DNA of 64,000 nt from the sequence record MH494197.1; one strand, 5' to 3'. Shown in pieces: positions 10,465 to 63,418 of this stretch. This stretch comes from Escherichia phage CMSTMSU. Each line of letters starts with the position of its first letter. The stretch's first letter is position 1. The notes beneath the pieces were generated by a model. That model was not told the DNA's origin. It made no database searches and worked only from the letters and a program-made list of their open reading frames with translations. The position numbers and the translations under genes are program-made.

Positions 10465-10502
10465 AACAATATTTACAAAAGGTTGACCGAAGTCAACCTT
10501 TT
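10465..10502 (-). promoter_or_regulatory. hairpin-promoter cassette variant
   Basis: AAAAGGTTGACTTCGGTCAACCTTTTGTAAATATT; perfect palindromic stem, weaker -10. Confidence 0.5.
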
Positions 10503-10849
10503 AAATGTTTATTTTTATCTTTTCCAACACCACGGTCGTACTCTTTGAATGAGTTATCAAGTGTAGTTAGTGCATACTCATATGCTTCTGGTGATTCAAT
10601 GTCAACATCATCTGCACCATTTACTAAATCAGCCCACGCCTTTTGAAGTTTACGAGCATTGTTACCAACATTATCTTTAATCCAACTAATGTTTTGTTGA
10701 TACTTTTACTATCAGCACCTGCTTTTTACCAATCTCGGATATCCACATCATTAGCTTTTGAAGTTCATGAATTGATTTATCGGTCATTTCAAGATGTTCT
10801 TCTTCCATACCTTCGGAATCAGATGAACTAACGTCAATTCCATGTTTAG

Positions 10850-13239: not shown

Positions 13240-13371
13240 TTCATACTCCTTAAAGAGATAAATTACTTTAATATTTATACTTCATGTGCTGTTTATTTCT
13301 ACAGACACTTAAGATTATATCACGTAAGAAATGGTTGTCCCAAAGTCAAATCAGTACTGTTTAAGTTCTGA

Positions 13372-16391: not shown

Positions 16392-16434
16392 AATAATTAT
16401 AACAAAAAGGCTGACCGAAGTCAACCTTTATTTT
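16392..16434 (-). promoter_or_regulatory. hairpin-embedded sigma-70 promoter
   Basis: AAGGTTGACTTCGGTCAGCCTTTTTGTTATAAT. Confidence 0.6.
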
Positions 16435-22106: not shown

Positions 22107-22134
22107 ATTATACAGTACTGATATCTTATGTCAA
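22107..22134 (-). promoter_or_regulatory. sigma-70 promoter, TTGACA-N16-TATAAT
   Basis: TTGACAtaagatatcagtactgTATAATg. Confidence 0.6.
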
Positions 22135-23654: not shown

Positions 23655-23928
23655 CTCATTTAGTTTGTCCAACAATTAGTTTCTCTCTAGTATTACTATT
23701 GTAACACCACATTAATTCTTCACCAACTGTTCTAAGTGAAACGCTGTTTACTTGTTCATAAGTACTGTCACGTACTGCAATGCATTGATTCATTGAATTC
23801 ATTGGGGTGATTTGTACACCAGATTGTGGTGAAAGAGCAATAATTAAAAGATTACTGAATTCATTAGATATTCCTTAGTGGTTAATCATCCATCTCTTCG
23901 AGATGTCTGTTCGCTTCTAATACTACGT

Positions 23929-23957
23929 ATTCTACGCGAATGAATCATAACTGTCAA
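23929..23957 (-). promoter_or_regulatory. sigma-70-like promoter, TTGACA-N17-TAGAAT
   Basis: minus strand TTGACAgttatgattcattcgcgTAGAAT. Confidence 0.45.
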
Positions 23958-23959
23958 GG

Positions 23960-24455
23960 ACTTTTAATATTGACGGGATTTGAGGAAGGATTTTTCTTCC
24001 CCACATGGAGGGAATTTGACGCTGATGGTATCAGAGCTATTGCATTGAAGATTACTCATAATGAGTGCGAAAGCGGGTCATCCTGTTTCTCTCTACTTCA
24101 GTTTCATATGACGGTCTACACTTTTAAACATAGTGTATCTTCATTAAGTATCTATGCAATCAAATACTTAATGTGAGTACTCAAATTTTGGACGCAACTT
24201 TCCTGTACAAAATTCGATAACTCTCCTTAGATAATTCGTAAGGTGTTATCCTTATATGTCTATCGAGGAACCATCAGCTATCCTAACGTGGTTCTTTATA
24301 CAGCCGCATTGCCGTGAGGGGTTCAAACTATGCCCACATCTAACGGGTTTCTTTTGCTGTTCGCTACAATGAAAAGCTCATCTATCCTTTACATTTTCAA
24401 GTGAAGTAGGGGAAGATTGTCAGTACCAGTACTGTCATTGTGATTGTACATAGAT
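23960..24455 (-). other. ~0.5-kb interval with no ORF over ~30 codons on either strand; candidate structured ncRNA or decayed gene
   Basis: stops in all minus frames every 15-30 codons; locally higher GC; lies between two promoters. Confidence 0.3.
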
Positions 24456-24487
24456 CATTGTATCACCATTAATAAATTTGTCCCATA

Positions 24488-24516
24488 AAAAGGCTGACCG
24501 AAGTCAACCCTTTAAT
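24488..24516 (-). terminator. UUCG-tetraloop hairpin terminator (cassette without a good -10)
   Basis: GGGTTGACTTCGGTCAGCCTTTTT downstream of sigma-factor gene. Confidence 0.5.
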
Positions 24517-24517
24517 C

Positions 24518-25480
24518 TTAAAAATCTTCGAACTCGTAACCTTGCATCTTCACCATCTTACGCAGTCGTTCCATTGCTTCAGAGTACTTACGGTGCAATG
24601 AAGAACGAGCAGTCATGACCTTACCCTTCTCATCTTCAAAACCACTCTCAATGATTTCTCGTAGCGTTTCTGGTTCAGAATAAGAACCAATACCATGTAC
24701 ACGTTCAATCAATTCACGGTCTTTGGCAGATAGGTTACTCATCATTTCTGCAATACTTTGTACCAGTGGGTACTGACAGTTTCTACGCCTAAGTTGTAAT
24801 CAGGTTCAACTGAAGTAACAATGTCAGATAATGTACTTTCTGAATCATTACTCATTTTCATATTCAATGCTACATAAGTGTTATTGTAAGTTAGACAATT
24901 CTTAACGTGTTGAATCTCAATACCAGTCTCTTTTGACACCATCTCAGGAGTTGGGTATTTACCATGTTTCCTTTGATACTCTTCTACACAACGTTTCACA
25001 TAAATGTTATTAACACTCATATAACGTGGGAAATGCACTAGATAATTAGCATCTGCACTTTCGTTATAGATTGTCATGTACACAGTTGTTGTTGCATATG
25101 TAATGAACTTAACATTTTGGTAGTGTCGAACGTATGAATTGCTCGCATTAAACCTTCAACACCATAAGAAATCTTATCTTCAAATGGGATGAAACATGTA
25201 CACTTACGTGCAACACTTACTACCATTGGATAGTTGTAGCGAACCAAAAGGTCAATATTCTTTTCAACGTCAATACCATCACGCACTGCTTGGATGAGCA
25301 TTTCATTCGTTATCCCTTTAGGGCGAGTTAAGCTGATACCTGTTTTGGTTTCTCAAACTTGTGACCGTCATGTTCTTCTTCTTCGACGGAATCAAGAGCC
25401 TCTAATACGTTGACTTCTTCACTAGCAAAACACTCATCCAGTACTTCTTCAGAAATTGCATTTAAATCAAGCTTTTTCAC
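24518..25480 (-). CDS. sigma-70-family RNA polymerase sigma factor, frame-disrupted
   Basis: region 2-like NYPMVVSVARK...EDKISYGVEGLMRAIHTFD (ORF 25074..25301), region 3-like YPTPEMVSKETGIEIQHV (24742..25083), region 4-like SAKDRELIERVHGIG...TLREI...RKYSEAMERLRK (24518..24745). Confidence 0.65.
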
Positions 25481-25602
25481 TTACTTCTCCTAATGAATGA
25501 AATCAAAAACGGTATACATTAATATTATCATCGGTATAGATATCATGGTTATGAACATCCATGAAGGTATCAAATACCTTATCAAGAAGAGTATTATACT
25601 CT

Positions 25603-25860
25603 TCATGTACTGCTATCAAGCATGTATTCACCACCACTACCCATAAAGAATGTATAATCATTATGGAGATAATCAATCTTCTTGGTAAACTTACCCTTAT
25701 TAACGATTAAGTGAATGATGTAATCTTTTGACACAAGAACACAGTGACAACTCGCCTTGCGGTCTGGTATCACAGTCTCTTGTGAAATCAAGTATCTCAG
25801 TACTTTGTTAATTTCACTAACCTCACCGCAAGCACTAAACAGTCGGTCGTGTACATACAA
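25603..25860 (-). CDS. hypothetical protein
   Basis: 85-aa ORF. Confidence 0.4.
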   Translation of the reverse strand: MYVHDRLFSACGEVSEINKVLRYLISQETVIPDRKASCHCVLVSKDYIIHLIVNKGKFTKKIDYLHNDYTFFMGSGGEYMLDSST

Positions 25861-26674: not shown

Positions 26675-26748
26675 AATGTTTTCCTTTTTAGCTGATAATT
26701 AAATTAGGAGCACATTGTACTCCATGTTATTGGTTAAGTCAAATACTT

Positions 26749-27000: not shown

Positions 27001-27054
27001 AAGTTCCTTACCATTTCCCAGTTTTGATGTAATAATTATATATCTCTCAATAAC

Positions 27055-27378
27055 TCACGTCAACTGTTTTCCGTACCTTTCTCTGCCATTTTTGTGATGT
27101 GCCATTTGAGTACTGATTTGTGTACCATAAAAATGTGAATGCAAAGACTGTAATGGCTGCTGAAGTAACACTATTAGATAAAGACCAAGTTGGATGTTAG
27201 TACCTAAAATAACAATAAATGGATATAACACAATCAATCTACTGTAAGGTTCGTCTCCAGTATCACGGATAAATCCAAGCCTTTCATGATCAGTATCCAT
27301 AGTGACAATTGGACAGAACATAAGTGCAGACATAACAGCAATACCAATTTGTGCTACATTGGCAATTGTAAACCACAA
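27055..27378 (-). CDS. membrane protein
   Basis: 107-aa hydrophobic ORF. Confidence 0.45.
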   Translation of the reverse strand: MWFTIANVAQIGIAVMSALMFCPIVTMDTDHERLGFIRDTGDEPYSRLIVLYPFIVILGTNIQLGLYLIVLLQQPLQSLHSHFYGTQISTQMAHHKNGRERYGKQLT

Positions 27379-36565: not shown

Positions 36566-36697
36566 ATCGTCATCATAGCAAAAACTCTAACTTCACCAAT
36601 ATCTTTTAATTGTACATCATGTAGTGACCATGCGTTGTTTTTAATACGTAGTTCACCATTTTAACAATGTTGTATTTCATAGTGTACCTTTATTTTG

Positions 36698-36770
<73 letters not shown>

Positions 36771-36773
36771 TGA

Positions 36774-36856
<83 letters not shown>

Positions 36857-36907
36857 AGAAGTAAGATAACCAACAAGTCTCCATACTCTTTCGCATTGAG
36901 GGGAGGC

Positions 36908-36968
<61 letters not shown>

Positions 36969-37020
36969 GCCAAGTGTCGGCATAGGTGCAGCACTATAAA
37001 GTTCTTCAAGCTGTTTGGCA

Positions 37021-37110
<90 letters not shown>

Positions 37111-37112
37111 TA

Positions 37113-37237
<125 letters not shown>

Positions 37238-37256
37238 GCATACTCGAAGTACCTCT

Positions 37257-37294
<38 letters not shown>

Positions 37295-37313
37295 AACTGA
37301 ATACTTACATCCC

Positions 37314-37348
<35 letters not shown>

Positions 37349-37400
37349 ATAGGCACACACGGAACTGCTTTATAAGCTACTGAATCGGGAATCACAACCT

Positions 37401-37660
<260 letters not shown>

Positions 37661-37724
37661 TAATACCCGCTAGTAGTTTAAGTCTGCGGCGTTGAAGACA
37701 CCAAGTGAAGTCTTACCACGTAGT

Positions 37725-37964
37725 TTAGGTGAAATGACATATTTTGTCAATTTCTTTTACCGTACCAGTGATTGAATTCGTCTTCAGTAACATGTGGGTT
37801 CTGGAAATCGTATTCACGTTTCTTATGAAGTTTTTAGCTTGTTCTGCAATCTTAGTTCGTTGATCTTCTGGAATGTCGAATGTATTGTTACGTTTGCACC
37901 ATTCGTGCACTAATGCTTCCAGAAGGAACTGTTCAGTTTCTTTGACTAGAGTGATTTTAGTCAA
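37725..37964 (-). CDS. hypothetical protein
   Basis: 79-aa ORF. Confidence 0.4.
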   Translation of the reverse strand: MTKITLVKETEQFLLEALVHEWCKRNNTFDIPEDQRTKIAEQAKNFIRNVNTISRTHMLLKTNSITGTVKEIDKICHFT

Positions 37965-38075
37965 GCCTTTTCGATGTTCATATAATCATCGACATATCCA
38001 TTCCAAATAACAATCTCTGGATTGCCGTCAATCTCTTGAAGCATTTTGATCAAGTCATTCTTTTCATTTAAATTC

Positions 38076-38321
<246 letters not shown>

Positions 38322-38341
38322 AAGTATGCCATATTTGTTTC

Positions 38342-38527
38342 CTATGAAATGAATGTAGCGTTAATTCCCATTATAAATGCAAATATACCAAACAATATCA
38401 GACCGATTGGTACAAAGATCATAGATCTATTTCCATGTTTCGATAAAAATCGTTCAACTGTAATTAAACGTATTGATATCGGAACCATTATAATAATATA
38501 CAATATTGAAAGAATTAAAAGTTGCAT
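38342..38527 (-). CDS. small membrane protein
   Basis: 61-aa hydrophobic ORF. Confidence 0.4.
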   Translation of the reverse strand: MQLLILSILYIIIMVPISIRLITVERFLSKHGNRSMIFVPIGLILFGIFAFIMGINATFIS

Positions 38528-38556
38528 TTTAATTTCCTATTGTAATTTCGTTTTTG

Positions 38557-39352
<796 letters not shown>

Positions 39353-39711
39353 TCACCAACTTTAATTAAAAAATGGATGGTGACGCTTTTAAACGCCGCT
39401 GTTAATTCAGCTTTATAACCACCGTTTTAACTTGCCTTTCGGCTACCTTGACGTGGTGCGTACAGGCTACTAAAAGCAACTACTGTAAACATATTTCCAC
39501 GCCTTACCCTTTTAAATAAAAGTCCATCCGGTTTTCCAGTTTGGTGAAGGATAGTCACCTCTAGTTTAAACCTGCTAGTCAAGTAATAATTGCCTATCGT
39601 CCAATTATCAAACCCGTCTAGGTTAACATTCACCACTTCCTAGAGTACCAGAGATCTTGTTCTGGATTGCATCGACGTAACTTACACCATATACGTCTGA
39701 TTGTGGAATTC

Positions 39712-39745
<34 letters not shown>

Positions 39746-39805
39746 TTTACAAATCTGGACGTTCATCTTTAAACATATTAATCTCCTTGGTACTGAACTA
39801 TTTAT

Positions 39806-40218
<413 letters not shown>

Positions 40219-40235
40219 CTTTTTATTCATCGGTA

Positions 40236-40273
<38 letters not shown>

Positions 40274-40287
40274 TTAAATATGCTTTG

Positions 40288-40322
<35 letters not shown>

Positions 40323-40387
40323 AGAATCTAATGGTAGATAATAAGGATTCCACTTTATTTTTGGCGTTTCATCCACTCTTCATGTGT

Positions 40388-40557
40388 CATATTCGTACCA
40401 GTAGTTCAATTAAGTACATTTCATATGCTGGATCGTTGATAAGTTTATCATACAGATGTGGCTCTGAAATGAATTCCCAATGATACTTTAGCCATTTACC
40501 GATACCCGAATATCTAAAATTAATATCATTCATCCATTCTTCATGTGTCATTTTCGT

Positions 40558-40561
<4 letters not shown>
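40388..40561 (-). CDS. MTHEEW-family small protein, copy B (~55 aa)
   Basis: hand translation MTHEEWMNDINFRYSGIGKWLKYHWEFISEP...; stop overlaps ATG of a truncated third copy. Confidence 0.4.
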
Positions 40562-40712
<151 letters not shown>

Positions 40713-40735
40713 GGTTTAACCTTTAATTAAAATTG

Positions 40736-40814
<79 letters not shown>

Positions 40815-40818
40815 ATTT

Positions 40819-40934
<116 letters not shown>

Positions 40935-45568: not shown

Positions 45569-45704
45569 TTTAATACCCTTTTATTTCTTTTTATGAAAAA
45601 CCCTCATCATTGAGGAATGGTTTGCATTTTACATCTGCCGATAATATACATTATATCATACTTTTCAGCGTTGTCCCAAAAATTAATTATTTTTAGAACA
45701 AATT

Positions 45705-62207: not shown

Positions 62208-63418
62208 TTACTTGTTAGCTTTTTCAGCAATTTCACGAAGAGTATCTTCAAGTTCATGAGAGAGTTTTGCGATTTCAATCTTAGCTCGCTCACGCTCTTC
62301 TTTACCTTTCTTCTCTTCAATCAGTACTGCTTCGATGCTATCGATCATTGTTTTGTGTACATTACGCAATGTTTTAATATCCACGATACCACGATTATTT
62401 GCTTTAGCAGCATCCAACATGTTAGTTGCTACCATTTTAGAGTTTACTTCGAGTAAACGGTTAGTTTCATTGTCAATCAGATTACCCAACTCATTGTCTT
62501 TACGTTGACGTTCGGAAATCAACTGTTCAGCCAATTGTGATTTCCATGCTGGAATAACAACTGATTTCAAATCCTCAAACTTAGAAACAGTGTTGAGGTT
62601 TACTTTCTTCATACTCATCAGGCGAGGACCGCTCAGTTCACACATCATGATAAGACGACGAATCTTATCTTCCTGCTTAGATAGAGCTTCACAAATCATC
62701 TTTTGCTCGGATTGCAAAAGAATCAACGTCAGGGTTCGCTTGCATTGCTACCAATTCAGCATCTTGTGCTTTGGTAACTTCTTCCAACTCAACTAACGTA
62801 TCACGTAGTTCAAAGAGATAGTTTTGTTTTCGTTGTAAGCAGTGTCTAGCCATGCACATTCCCATGCTGGCGGTTAATACCAACCTGAAGAGTGTTCATG
62901 ATTTCATCAATTTGTTCTTTACTGTTTTTGTACTGATCGCCAACTTTCTGTTTAGCATTAACAAAAGTTTTTGACCCAGCCTACGATTGATTTATCATCC
63001 TGTAGACTATCAATATCAACTGCACGAGTCAATGTCAAGATAGTAGTAATAGACTTACCGAATTCGGTATTATCATCAGTTACGTTAACTTTTGACATGA
63101 TTTCATCAGCCAAACGTCCAACACCTGCCCCAGCAGTGGTTCCGATGGTATTAATATTCTGCACAGTTAAAGCCATACTGTTGCCTTTAGTATCTTTCAG
63201 TACTGGAAGTGACTTGGACTGTTGTTCGAAGATATCAGTTGCGTCAATTGTGTGTGCTGCTGTTTTGGTAGTACGTTTGGCAGTTTTGGTTGCTTTGGCT
63301 TGTTTAACTGTTGCTTTTTCGGATTGATTTCTTTCTCGGACATTGTGTATTCCTCAGTTAATTTAAGATAGTGTTGCTCAGTGATAAACATTCTACAGGC
63401 AACACTCAGTACTGTCAA
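62208..63418 (-). CDS. PspA/TelA-like coiled-coil protein, fragmented over four frames
   Basis: ORFs 63197..63418, 62958..63176, 62689..62883, 62208..62726 abut or overlap serially; charged helical sequence DTLVELEEVTKAQDAELVAMQ. Confidence 0.4.

Follow-up and report, generated by a model that had tools for sequence, protein, structure and literature searches.

A sigma-70-family gene of an Asteriusvirus-type jumbo coliphage, read in four pieces, and the probable technical origin of its three frame breaks

The stretch of DNA analyzed here, which we call the window, comprises 64,000 nt of the sequence record of Escherichia phage CMSTMSU (MH494197.1). At positions 24518–25480 of its minus strand lies a sigma-70-family gene that cannot be read through in one frame, and a preliminary description, made from the letters alone, had concluded that the gene was either mis-sequenced or inactivated. 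Does the window therefore contain one intact gene that was misread, or a gene that is broken in the phage itself, and what would its product do during infection? Our comparisons lead us to a confident answer to the first question: there is very probably one intact RpoD/RpoS-like sigma factor gene, and its three breaks are base-calling or assembly errors in an unpolished long-read (nanopore-type) assembly. The second question is answered in graded steps below. The gene itself was already known, as it is annotated in most of the related genomes compared and has been treated in comparative studies.

Four pieces of one gene and the origin of the breaks

As assembled, the gene runs over 963 nt from a GTG start codon (25480–25478) to a TAA stop codon (24520–24518), and with three single-base corrections it becomes 966 nt long and encodes 321 aa. 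The preliminary description had reported adjacent minus-strand open reading frames (ORFs) here with region 2-, region 3-, and region 4-like translations, together with an acidic N-terminal segment in a fourth frame. The ORF pieces were found as described, all on the minus strand, and Pfam recognized regions 2 and 3 on the individual pieces. Piece 1 (25328–25480, 50 aa), the acidic N-terminal segment with the motif MKKLDLNAIxEEVLDECF, begins with the GTG start, has a GGAG upstream at 25490–25487, and gave zero Pfam matches when the corrected protein was searched. Piece 2 (25074–25301, 75 aa) resembles regions 1.2/2.1–2.3 in the Pfam and PDB alignments, with the core-binding helix and the beginning of the -10 recognition helix, and by itself scored 23.5 bits against Pfam Sigma70_r2. 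Piece 3 (24742–25083, 113 aa) carries region 2.4 and region 3, and by itself scored 45.9 bits against Pfam Sigma70_r3. Piece 4 (24518–24745, 75 aa) corresponds to a divergent region 4 without a Sigma70_r4 match, in which region 4.1 is well conserved and the predicted local distance difference test (pLDDT) score is about 87. When the locus was translated in three frames, the sigma-like reading shifted by one base in a constant direction at each junction (frames 2, 1, 0, and 2), so that pieces 1 and 4 lie in one common frame. The acidic segment is thus real, but it is a fourth segment only and shares the frame of piece 4.

The locus has close relatives with which it can be compared. A megablast search of positions 24300–25700 against GenBank phages showed 98.2–98.9% full-length identity to eight jumbo coliphages (BF17, WPEC3, WPEC5, Ecwhy_1, fEgEco12, Turkey3, vB_Ec-M-J, and EC.P1), 96.8% to TH47, and 87% to Turkey5 and JNE01. 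Several of these 11 relatives are classified in Asteriusvirus, and the locus is syntenic in all of them. In the annotated relatives, it is a single coding sequence of 963–969 nt, mostly named “RNA polymerase sigma factor.” Labels for the gene differ among the records: it is “FliA” in WPEC3, “RpoS” in Turkey5, “hypothetical protein” in EC.P1 and JNE01, and a misc_feature in Ecwhy_1, a record marked UNVERIFIED. The paper on fEgEco12 gave the corresponding protein, Gp519, as absent from Ecwhy_1; in fact, the sigma ORF of Ecwhy_1 is intact, with 99% identity.

We compared the gene with these sequences by DNA alignment with BF17, WPEC3, and Turkey5, and by a BLAST search of the BF17 gene against the 11 relatives. 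Break 1 lies in a run of four A (minus strand, 25343–25346) and break 2 in another run of four A (minus strand, 25115–25118), each of which has five A in BF17, WPEC3, and the other BF17-type relatives; break 3 lies in a run of three C (minus strand, 24768–24770), which has four C in the same phages. Each break is accordingly a 1-nt deletion. Break 2 falls within region 2.3, immediately before KFITYAT, and break 3 falls in the linker preceding region 4. In the more distant Turkey5-type sequence, there is no homopolymer run at any of the three sites. The gene is an uninterrupted single ORF of 963–969 nt with no internal stop in 11 of 11 relatives, and among the 12 sequences compared, the three 1-nt deletions occur in the window only (0 of 11 relatives). 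The length changes among the relatives’ genes are in-frame 3-nt changes only, all in a Glu repeat, and the further indel (insertion or deletion) that separates the window gene from that of BF17 is likewise an in-frame GAA deletion, common to WPEC3 and TH47. The corrected 321-aa protein is 99% identical to BF17 QXN76493.1, the differences being one Glu deletion and one T-to-M replacement, and the nucleotide substitutions in the gene relative to BF17 are five synonymous and one non-synonymous.

The arrangement of the pieces might in itself suggest a natural split, in which polypeptides carrying regions 2, 3, and 4 are translated separately and assemble on the polymerase in the manner of two-subunit sigma factors; pieces 2–4 each open with ATG or GTG and roughly match sigma domains. 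However, break 2 is inside the region 2.3 helix and not at a domain boundary, the pieces have no ribosome-binding sites of their own in the sequence, and a single polypeptide is encoded in all relatives. We therefore attach hardly any weight to a natural split.

The origin of the breaks becomes clear from the window as a whole, which was aligned to the homologous 67 kb of BF17 (60.2 kb aligned). This alignment contained 300 indels, comprising 280 deletions and 20 insertions in the window; 290 of the 300 were not multiples of three, 175 were in runs of at least four bases, and the deletion density was about 1 per 215 nt. The pattern against fEgEco12 was alike, with 196 deletions versus 6 insertions, whereas the control comparison of fEgEco12 with BF17, two finished genomes at a similar divergence, yielded 27 indels split 16/11. 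The proportion of BF17 homopolymers that were shorter in the window was 0.3%, 0.4%, 1.2%, 4.9%, 32.6%, 81%, 93%, and 100% for lengths of 1 to 8, respectively, and by these shortening rates two of the breaks in the sigma gene belong to the 33% class and one to the 5% class. The majority of the non-homopolymer deletions were at CCWGG (Dcm) sites: 30 of 33 such sites had a 1–2 nt deletion in the window, CCWGG becoming CCGG or CCG, and these errors suggest that the phage DNA carries Dcm-type methylation. Older nanopore base-calling is known to under-call homopolymers and to err at Dcm-methylated CCWGG in this systematic way. Furthermore, of the 92 BF17 ORFs of 100 aa or more that the alignment covered, 82 had one or more frame-shifting indels in the window (mean, 1.9 per ORF), and a lytic phage in such a state would not be viable. 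Because the deletions throughout the window follow homopolymer length and CCWGG sites and shift the frame of 82 of 92 ORFs, we read the three breaks in the sigma gene as errors of the assembly.

This evidence separates the two explanations offered in the preliminary description: mis-sequencing is retained and inactivation falls away, given breaks that are unique among the 12 sequences and a deletion pattern that extends over the window. A pseudogene, in which three real frameshifts inactivate the gene in this isolate, would agree with the lack of a full-length ORF in the assembled sequence, and in the UNVERIFIED Ecwhy_1 record the locus carries no more than the misc_feature label “similar to RNA polymerase sigma factor,” although the ORF there is intact. 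Such a pseudogene, however, needs three independent inactivating hits in a single-copy gene that is conserved clade-wide, and the like deletions elsewhere in the window are incompatible with a viable lytic phage. The tracking of homopolymer length and Dcm sites is a technical signature, and the predominance of synonymous substitutions likewise counts against loss of function; we consider inactivation very unlikely. Programmed breaks, at which ribosomal frameshifting or transcriptional slippage in the A or C runs would restore the full-length sigma factor, might be proposed on the ground that all three breaks are in short homopolymers. However, none of the 11 relatives requires a frameshift, each having one extra base per site, and there is consequently nothing conserved to program; the genome-wide deletion pattern accounts for the breaks without recoding. 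Runs of 3–4 bases are, moreover, too short for efficient transcriptional slippage, and we know of no precedent for three consecutive recoding events within one gene, so that we regard programmed breaks as improbable in the extreme. The pseudogene, the programmed frameshift, and the naturally split sigma factor were all rejected on the grounds set out above. With errors of this kind throughout the 64-kb window, any “split,” “frameshifted,” or “pseudogene” call anywhere in it should be treated as an artefact until the sequence has been polished.

Sigma-70-family membership and DNA-contact residues

That the gene encodes a sigma factor, as the preliminary description had proposed, was confirmed by the domain search after frame correction, in which both region 2 and region 3 exceeded the Pfam thresholds. 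The corrected protein scored 37.1 bits against Sigma70_r2 (PF04542; cut-off, 24) and 44.9 bits against Sigma70_r3 (PF04539; cut-off, 25.3). Its only PHROG match was phrog_351, “RNA polymerase sigma factor” (E = 2.8e-47), and it matched PDB sigma chains with E-values down to 2.6e-17. The RpoD_Cterm, RpoS, and SigB profiles aligned over residues 78–319 and remained well under their curated cut-offs: the protein failed the equivalog test with 95.7 versus 354 bits for TIGR02393 (RpoD_Cterm) and 82.2 versus 378.7 bits for TIGR02394 (RpoS). The labels “RpoS,” “FliA,” and “RpoD” on some of the GenBank relatives are not justified, because the scores are below the equivalog cut-offs.

The fold was predicted with AlphaFold on a 98%-identical database protein (P0001) and a 19-sequence alignment. 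Three helical blocks were predicted at residues 51–146, 154–200, and 240–315 (pLDDT of about 84–90), the C-terminal helical domain at 234–314 having a pLDDT of about 87, and the N-terminal 50 residues were predicted to be disordered (pLDDT <50). In Foldseek, this model was closest to sigma-S of E. coli and sigma-A of mycobacteria, both represented by chains of holoenzyme or initiation-complex entries (E = 1.3e-10; 262–288 aligned columns). The match to the 277-residue sigma-S chain extended over 262 columns and is indirect evidence for region 4.

Some observations weigh against our interpretation and should be set beside these matches. Sigma70_r4 (PF04545) gave no match even at E-values up to 10, either with the whole protein or with the C-terminal 89 aa. 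When the C-terminal 89 aa were searched alone, the best PDB match was domain 4 of sigma-S (6fi7), with a marginal E-value of 0.036. The sequencing technology to which the breaks are attributed is itself deduced from the error profile. In addition, literature searches turned up no experimental work on the sigma factors of RaK2-like phages, the family to which this protein belongs, none of these searches having been aimed at experiments.

For the last of the three domains, the preliminary term “region 4-like” therefore has to be qualified: Pfam does not recognize region 4 and the isolated C-terminal match is marginal, but the whole-protein alignments and the predicted fold extend to the C-terminus. 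In the alignment with 6fi7, region 4.1 aligns well and an 8-residue insertion stands ahead of the recognition helix. PF04545 was likewise found in 0 of 16 phage homologues. In the predicted fold, the sigma2-sigma3-sigma4 architecture is complete and sigma4 is divergent.

A tblastn search found one full-length sigma copy in each of 70 jumbo-phage records, and phage-specific traits were conserved in the family alignment from 98% to 35% identity. These traits include an MKKLDLNxIxEEVLDECF motif at the N-terminus with an acidic tract after it, a segment absent in cellular sigma factors; the replacement of the W433/W434 dyad of sigma-70 by TT, TS, SS, or VS (TT in the window protein); VYMTIYN or IRQTMYN in place of the IRQAITR of sigma-70; an 8-aa insertion, G(F/Y)xDxKGK, in the helix-turn-helix of region 4.2; and a recognition helix that reads SRSSxHRKY, as against TRERIRQIE in sigma-70.

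The residues that contact DNA were compared by our own placement of sigma-70 residue numbers on the PDB and family alignments, and all residue equivalents given here follow that placement. Several positions of the base-flipping pocket and of core binding are unchanged with respect to sigma-70 (N383, F401, D403, F419, K426, F427, and Y430), and two others have conservative changes (E420 to D and R423 to K); the equivalents of N383, D403, G408, F427, T429, and Y430 are invariant across the family alignment. In contrast to these, other residues stand at the positions that contact -12/-13 and the extended -10 element (Q437 to M, T440 to Y, R441 to N, H455 to Y, and E458 to V) and at the -35 contacts (E585 to S, R588 to H, and Q589 to R), where R584 alone is kept. 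Taken at the level of sequence, the replaced contact residues suggest a promoter specificity unlike that of sigma-70, and the changes at -12/-13, the extended -10, and -35 argue for such a difference without saying which promoters are read. To the modest question of which promoters the family targets, the window contributes nothing unique.

Probable early transcription and promoter classes

The preliminary description had also noted many host-type promoters, and this holds for near-consensus sites. Strong sigma-70 sites, defined by at least 11 of 12 matches to TTGACA-N16-18-TATAAT, numbered 36 in the window compared with 4.65 ± 2.0 in shuffled sequences (both strands). All 36 were on the minus (coding) strand, between 2683 and 63418, and 11 of them were perfect. 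Loose sigma-70-like matches, meanwhile, were at the chance level (77 versus 80 ± 7.6). Over its full length, the window resembles a single long block of early genes, and a sigma factor gene is expected there: it is a hallmark gene, and it confirms that the window belongs to an Asteriusvirus-type jumbo coliphage and to the early region of its genome.

Within this block of short genes, the sigma gene is the final cistron of a short small-gene operon. The nearest strong upstream promoter (minus strand, 27035–27063; TTGACG-17-TATAAT, 11/12) probably drives this operon, the gene order being that of the BF17 annotation; a weaker promoter (minus strand, 10/12) lies at 26742–26714. The transcription unit ends in an intrinsic terminator (minus strand, 24486–24513) whose stem of 11 bp has a UUCG loop and is followed by a U-run (-14 kcal/mol, z = -4.2). 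The U-run is 2 nt shorter in the window, with an AA deletion at 24487, and the hairpin recurs at 16404–16429 and 10477–10504. At these three places, and at 122.8–131.3 kb in TH47, terminator and promoter form a cassette, AAAGG(G)TTGACTTCGGTCAGCC(C)TTTTT followed by GCTATAAT or TTATAAT, in which the TTGACT of the terminator stem is positioned as a -35 element for the downstream -10.

Since the sigma gene lies among near-consensus host promoters, it is the host sigma-70 holoenzyme that would make the phage sigma factor early in infection, and the gene is probably expressed early. In phage CBB, the homologous gene CBB_513 is surrounded by short ORFs with RpoD-like promoters, a block that has been proposed to be early (PMC5259590). 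The product, which keeps the core-binding helix of region 2.2, might then bind the E. coli core polymerase and take it to phage promoters of another type than the early sigma-70 ones, thereby acting as a switch out of early transcription. The ATAAATA late promoters would be served by a gp55-type factor, which has been reported as a separate protein in relatives. A temporal transcription switch of this kind is plausible and agrees with the promoter layout and with the published genomics of relatives (PMC5259590, PMC7824862).

We looked for other promoter classes in the relative TH47, to whose complete but unannotated genome of 352 kb a simple ORF model was applied. TH47 has 117 near-consensus sigma-70 sites, 109 of them on the minus strand, which are spread over 0–230 kb and scarce in 230–350 kb. 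In CBB, a divergent second promoter class precedes DNA-synthesis genes, and ATAAATA precedes structural genes, alongside a gp55-like factor (PMC5259590). The CBB-type motif TGAAACG...TATA occurred 0 times in the window and once in TH47, and the CBB-type “divergent RpoD” promoter was rejected for the BF17-type subgroup because the motif is essentially absent. ATAAATA, in turn, was the top enriched upstream 7-mer in TH47 (26 regions, 13.4-fold), with about half of its occurrences at 240–310 kb, which fits the late-promoter motif that has been put forward for CBB and GAP32 (PMC5259590). The T4 late consensus TATAAATA had just 11 copies in TH47 and is not the enriched form; the shorter ATAAATA is.

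A second promoter-like class, G(G/A)GACAA-N14-TG(A/C)TA(T/C)AAT, was present in 11 copies in TH47, all on the minus strand, compared with 0.77 in shuffled sequences. The genes that follow these sites in TH47 include those for a GyrB/Toprim topoisomerase subunit, a DnaB-like helicase following a putative primase, an Mre11-like metallophosphoesterase, and a NUDIX hydrolase. Genes of this type are preceded by the “divergent” class in CBB. The window has three such sites, all on the minus strand, at 13314–13341, 24457–24484, and 45650–45677, and the second of these stands directly after the sigma terminator as GGGACAA-N14-TGATACAAT. By analogy with CBB, this is a candidate “middle” class, though unlike the TGAAACG class of that phage.

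Whether the phage sigma factor reads this class is a separate matter, and here a further point stands against our interpretation: the motif retains a canonical extended -10 element, which sigma-70 could use, whereas the phage sigma factor has lost the residues that contact it. With the extended -10 kept in the motif and the contacts lost in the protein, no promoter class can be assigned to the phage sigma factor. R588 of sigma-70, which is substituted in the phage protein, reads G-33, a base that the GRGACAA motif still has; we rejected as unsafe an assignment of this class to the phage sigma factor on the strength of its region 4.2 substitutions. That the RaK2-like phage sigma factor reads an undefined promoter class of its own, with G(G/A)GACAA-N14-TG(A/C)TA(T/C)AAT as one candidate, is a tentative idea, which we think more likely to be wrong than right. 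The candidate determinants of such a class are the TT that replaces WW, the new -12, extended -10, and -35 residues, and the region 4.2 insertion. If the idea were correct, the phages would follow a three-stage program from sigma-70 through the phage sigma factor to the gp55-like factor. It concerns the phage family and not the frame breaks of the window.

The intact gene might, alternatively, encode a substitute for sigma-70 that reads host-like promoters once the host sigma factor has been displaced or inhibited, in which case it would not be a switch. Sigma factors of groups 1 and 2 are the nearest to the protein, which by our mapping onto sigma-70 numbering retains most of the -10 pocket residues, and the enriched upstream k-mers of TH47 besides ATAAATA are all of the TATAAT type. 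AsiA-like anti-sigma factors are also found in some group 2 jumbo phages (PMC7824862). Against a substitute, however, stand the replacement of nearly all of the -12, extended -10, and -35 specificity residues and the insertion in region 4.2, and we judge it unlikely. A factor that would direct the polymerase to promoters other than the early type remains our preferred reading of the intact gene.

Several other features were observed around the gene and elsewhere in the window. Downstream of the sigma gene, a stretch of about 650 nt (about 23800–24480) is poor in ORFs in a genome that is about 91% coding. Part of it (24300–24403) is about 87% identical to sequences of 121Q/PBECO4-type phages and of Pectobacterium phage CBB, in at most three places per genome. 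A search of this stretch for an RNA gene with Rfam, using both gathering and E-value thresholds, gave only a sub-threshold match to PhrS, which was on the terminator, and RNA folding revealed nothing unusual (163-nt fold, z = +0.9), so that an RNA gene in this stretch is not supported. In TH47, the matching gap contains an extra ORF of 214 aa. The palindrome CAGTACTG (extended form, ttCAGTACTGaa), which contains a ScaI site, occurs 40 times in the window compared with 0.84 ± 0.88 in shuffled sequences, for example at 24427–24434, 22113–22120, 39719–39726, 40196–40203, and 63407–63414. In TH47, there are 203 copies against about 5 expected, dispersed genome-wide, with 84% lying within ORFs and in every reading frame. 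Some copies are within or adjoin strong promoters, and a literature search for CAGTACTG returned unrelated primer sequences only. Finally, six transfer RNA genes lie on the minus strand at 36697–40908 (Thr-TGT twice, Asn-GTT, Met-CAT, Ser-GCT, and Ser-TGA), as annotated in BF17 and fEgEco12.

Comparison with phage and bacterial sigma factors

The closest counterparts of the window gene are the sigma factor genes of the BF17-type Asteriusvirus phages (BF17 QXN76493.1, fEgEco12 Gp519, WPEC3, WPEC5, vB_Ec-M-J, and Turkey3), in which the locus and its flanking genes are alike and the DNA is 98–99% identical; the sole difference is the three homopolymer deletions that we attribute to the assembly. 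The type Asteriusvirus, 121Q, is more distant, and from it the BF17-type subgroup has strongly diverged (59% identity). More widely, the protein belongs with the RpoD-like sigma factors of RaK2-like “group 2” jumbo phages, with identities of 59% to 121Q/PBECO4, 39% to RaK2/K64-1, 38% to GAP32, and 37% to CBB_513. As in the window, these proteins are homologous over their full length, are encoded by one copy per genome among short early genes, and match Pfam regions 2 and 3 without region 4. Iyer et al. (PMC7824862) counted phage-encoded sigma factors, the RpoD-like type among them, as a characteristic of group 2 jumbo phages, a group without an RNA polymerase of its own, and the statement has been repeated for an Asteriusvirus (PMC11895373).

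A phage-encoded factor that retargets the host core polymerase is likewise known from the late sigma factor gp55 of T4 with gp33, in the T4-related lineage with a gp23 capsid (PMC7824862). T4 gp55 is, however, a minimal protein with region 2 only, whereas the window protein has regions 2, 3, and 4, and the gp55-like proteins of relatives are separate genes (PMC5259590). Among cellular proteins, the best matches in both sequence and fold are bacterial group 1 and 2 sigma factors (E. coli RpoS and RpoD, and mycobacterial SigA and SigB), with which the phage protein has in common the sigma2-sigma3-sigma4 order, the core-binding helix of regions 2.1/2.2, and most residues of the A-11/T-7 pocket. 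It differs from them in having no detectable regions 1.1 and 1.2, and in carrying a phage-specific acidic N-terminus.

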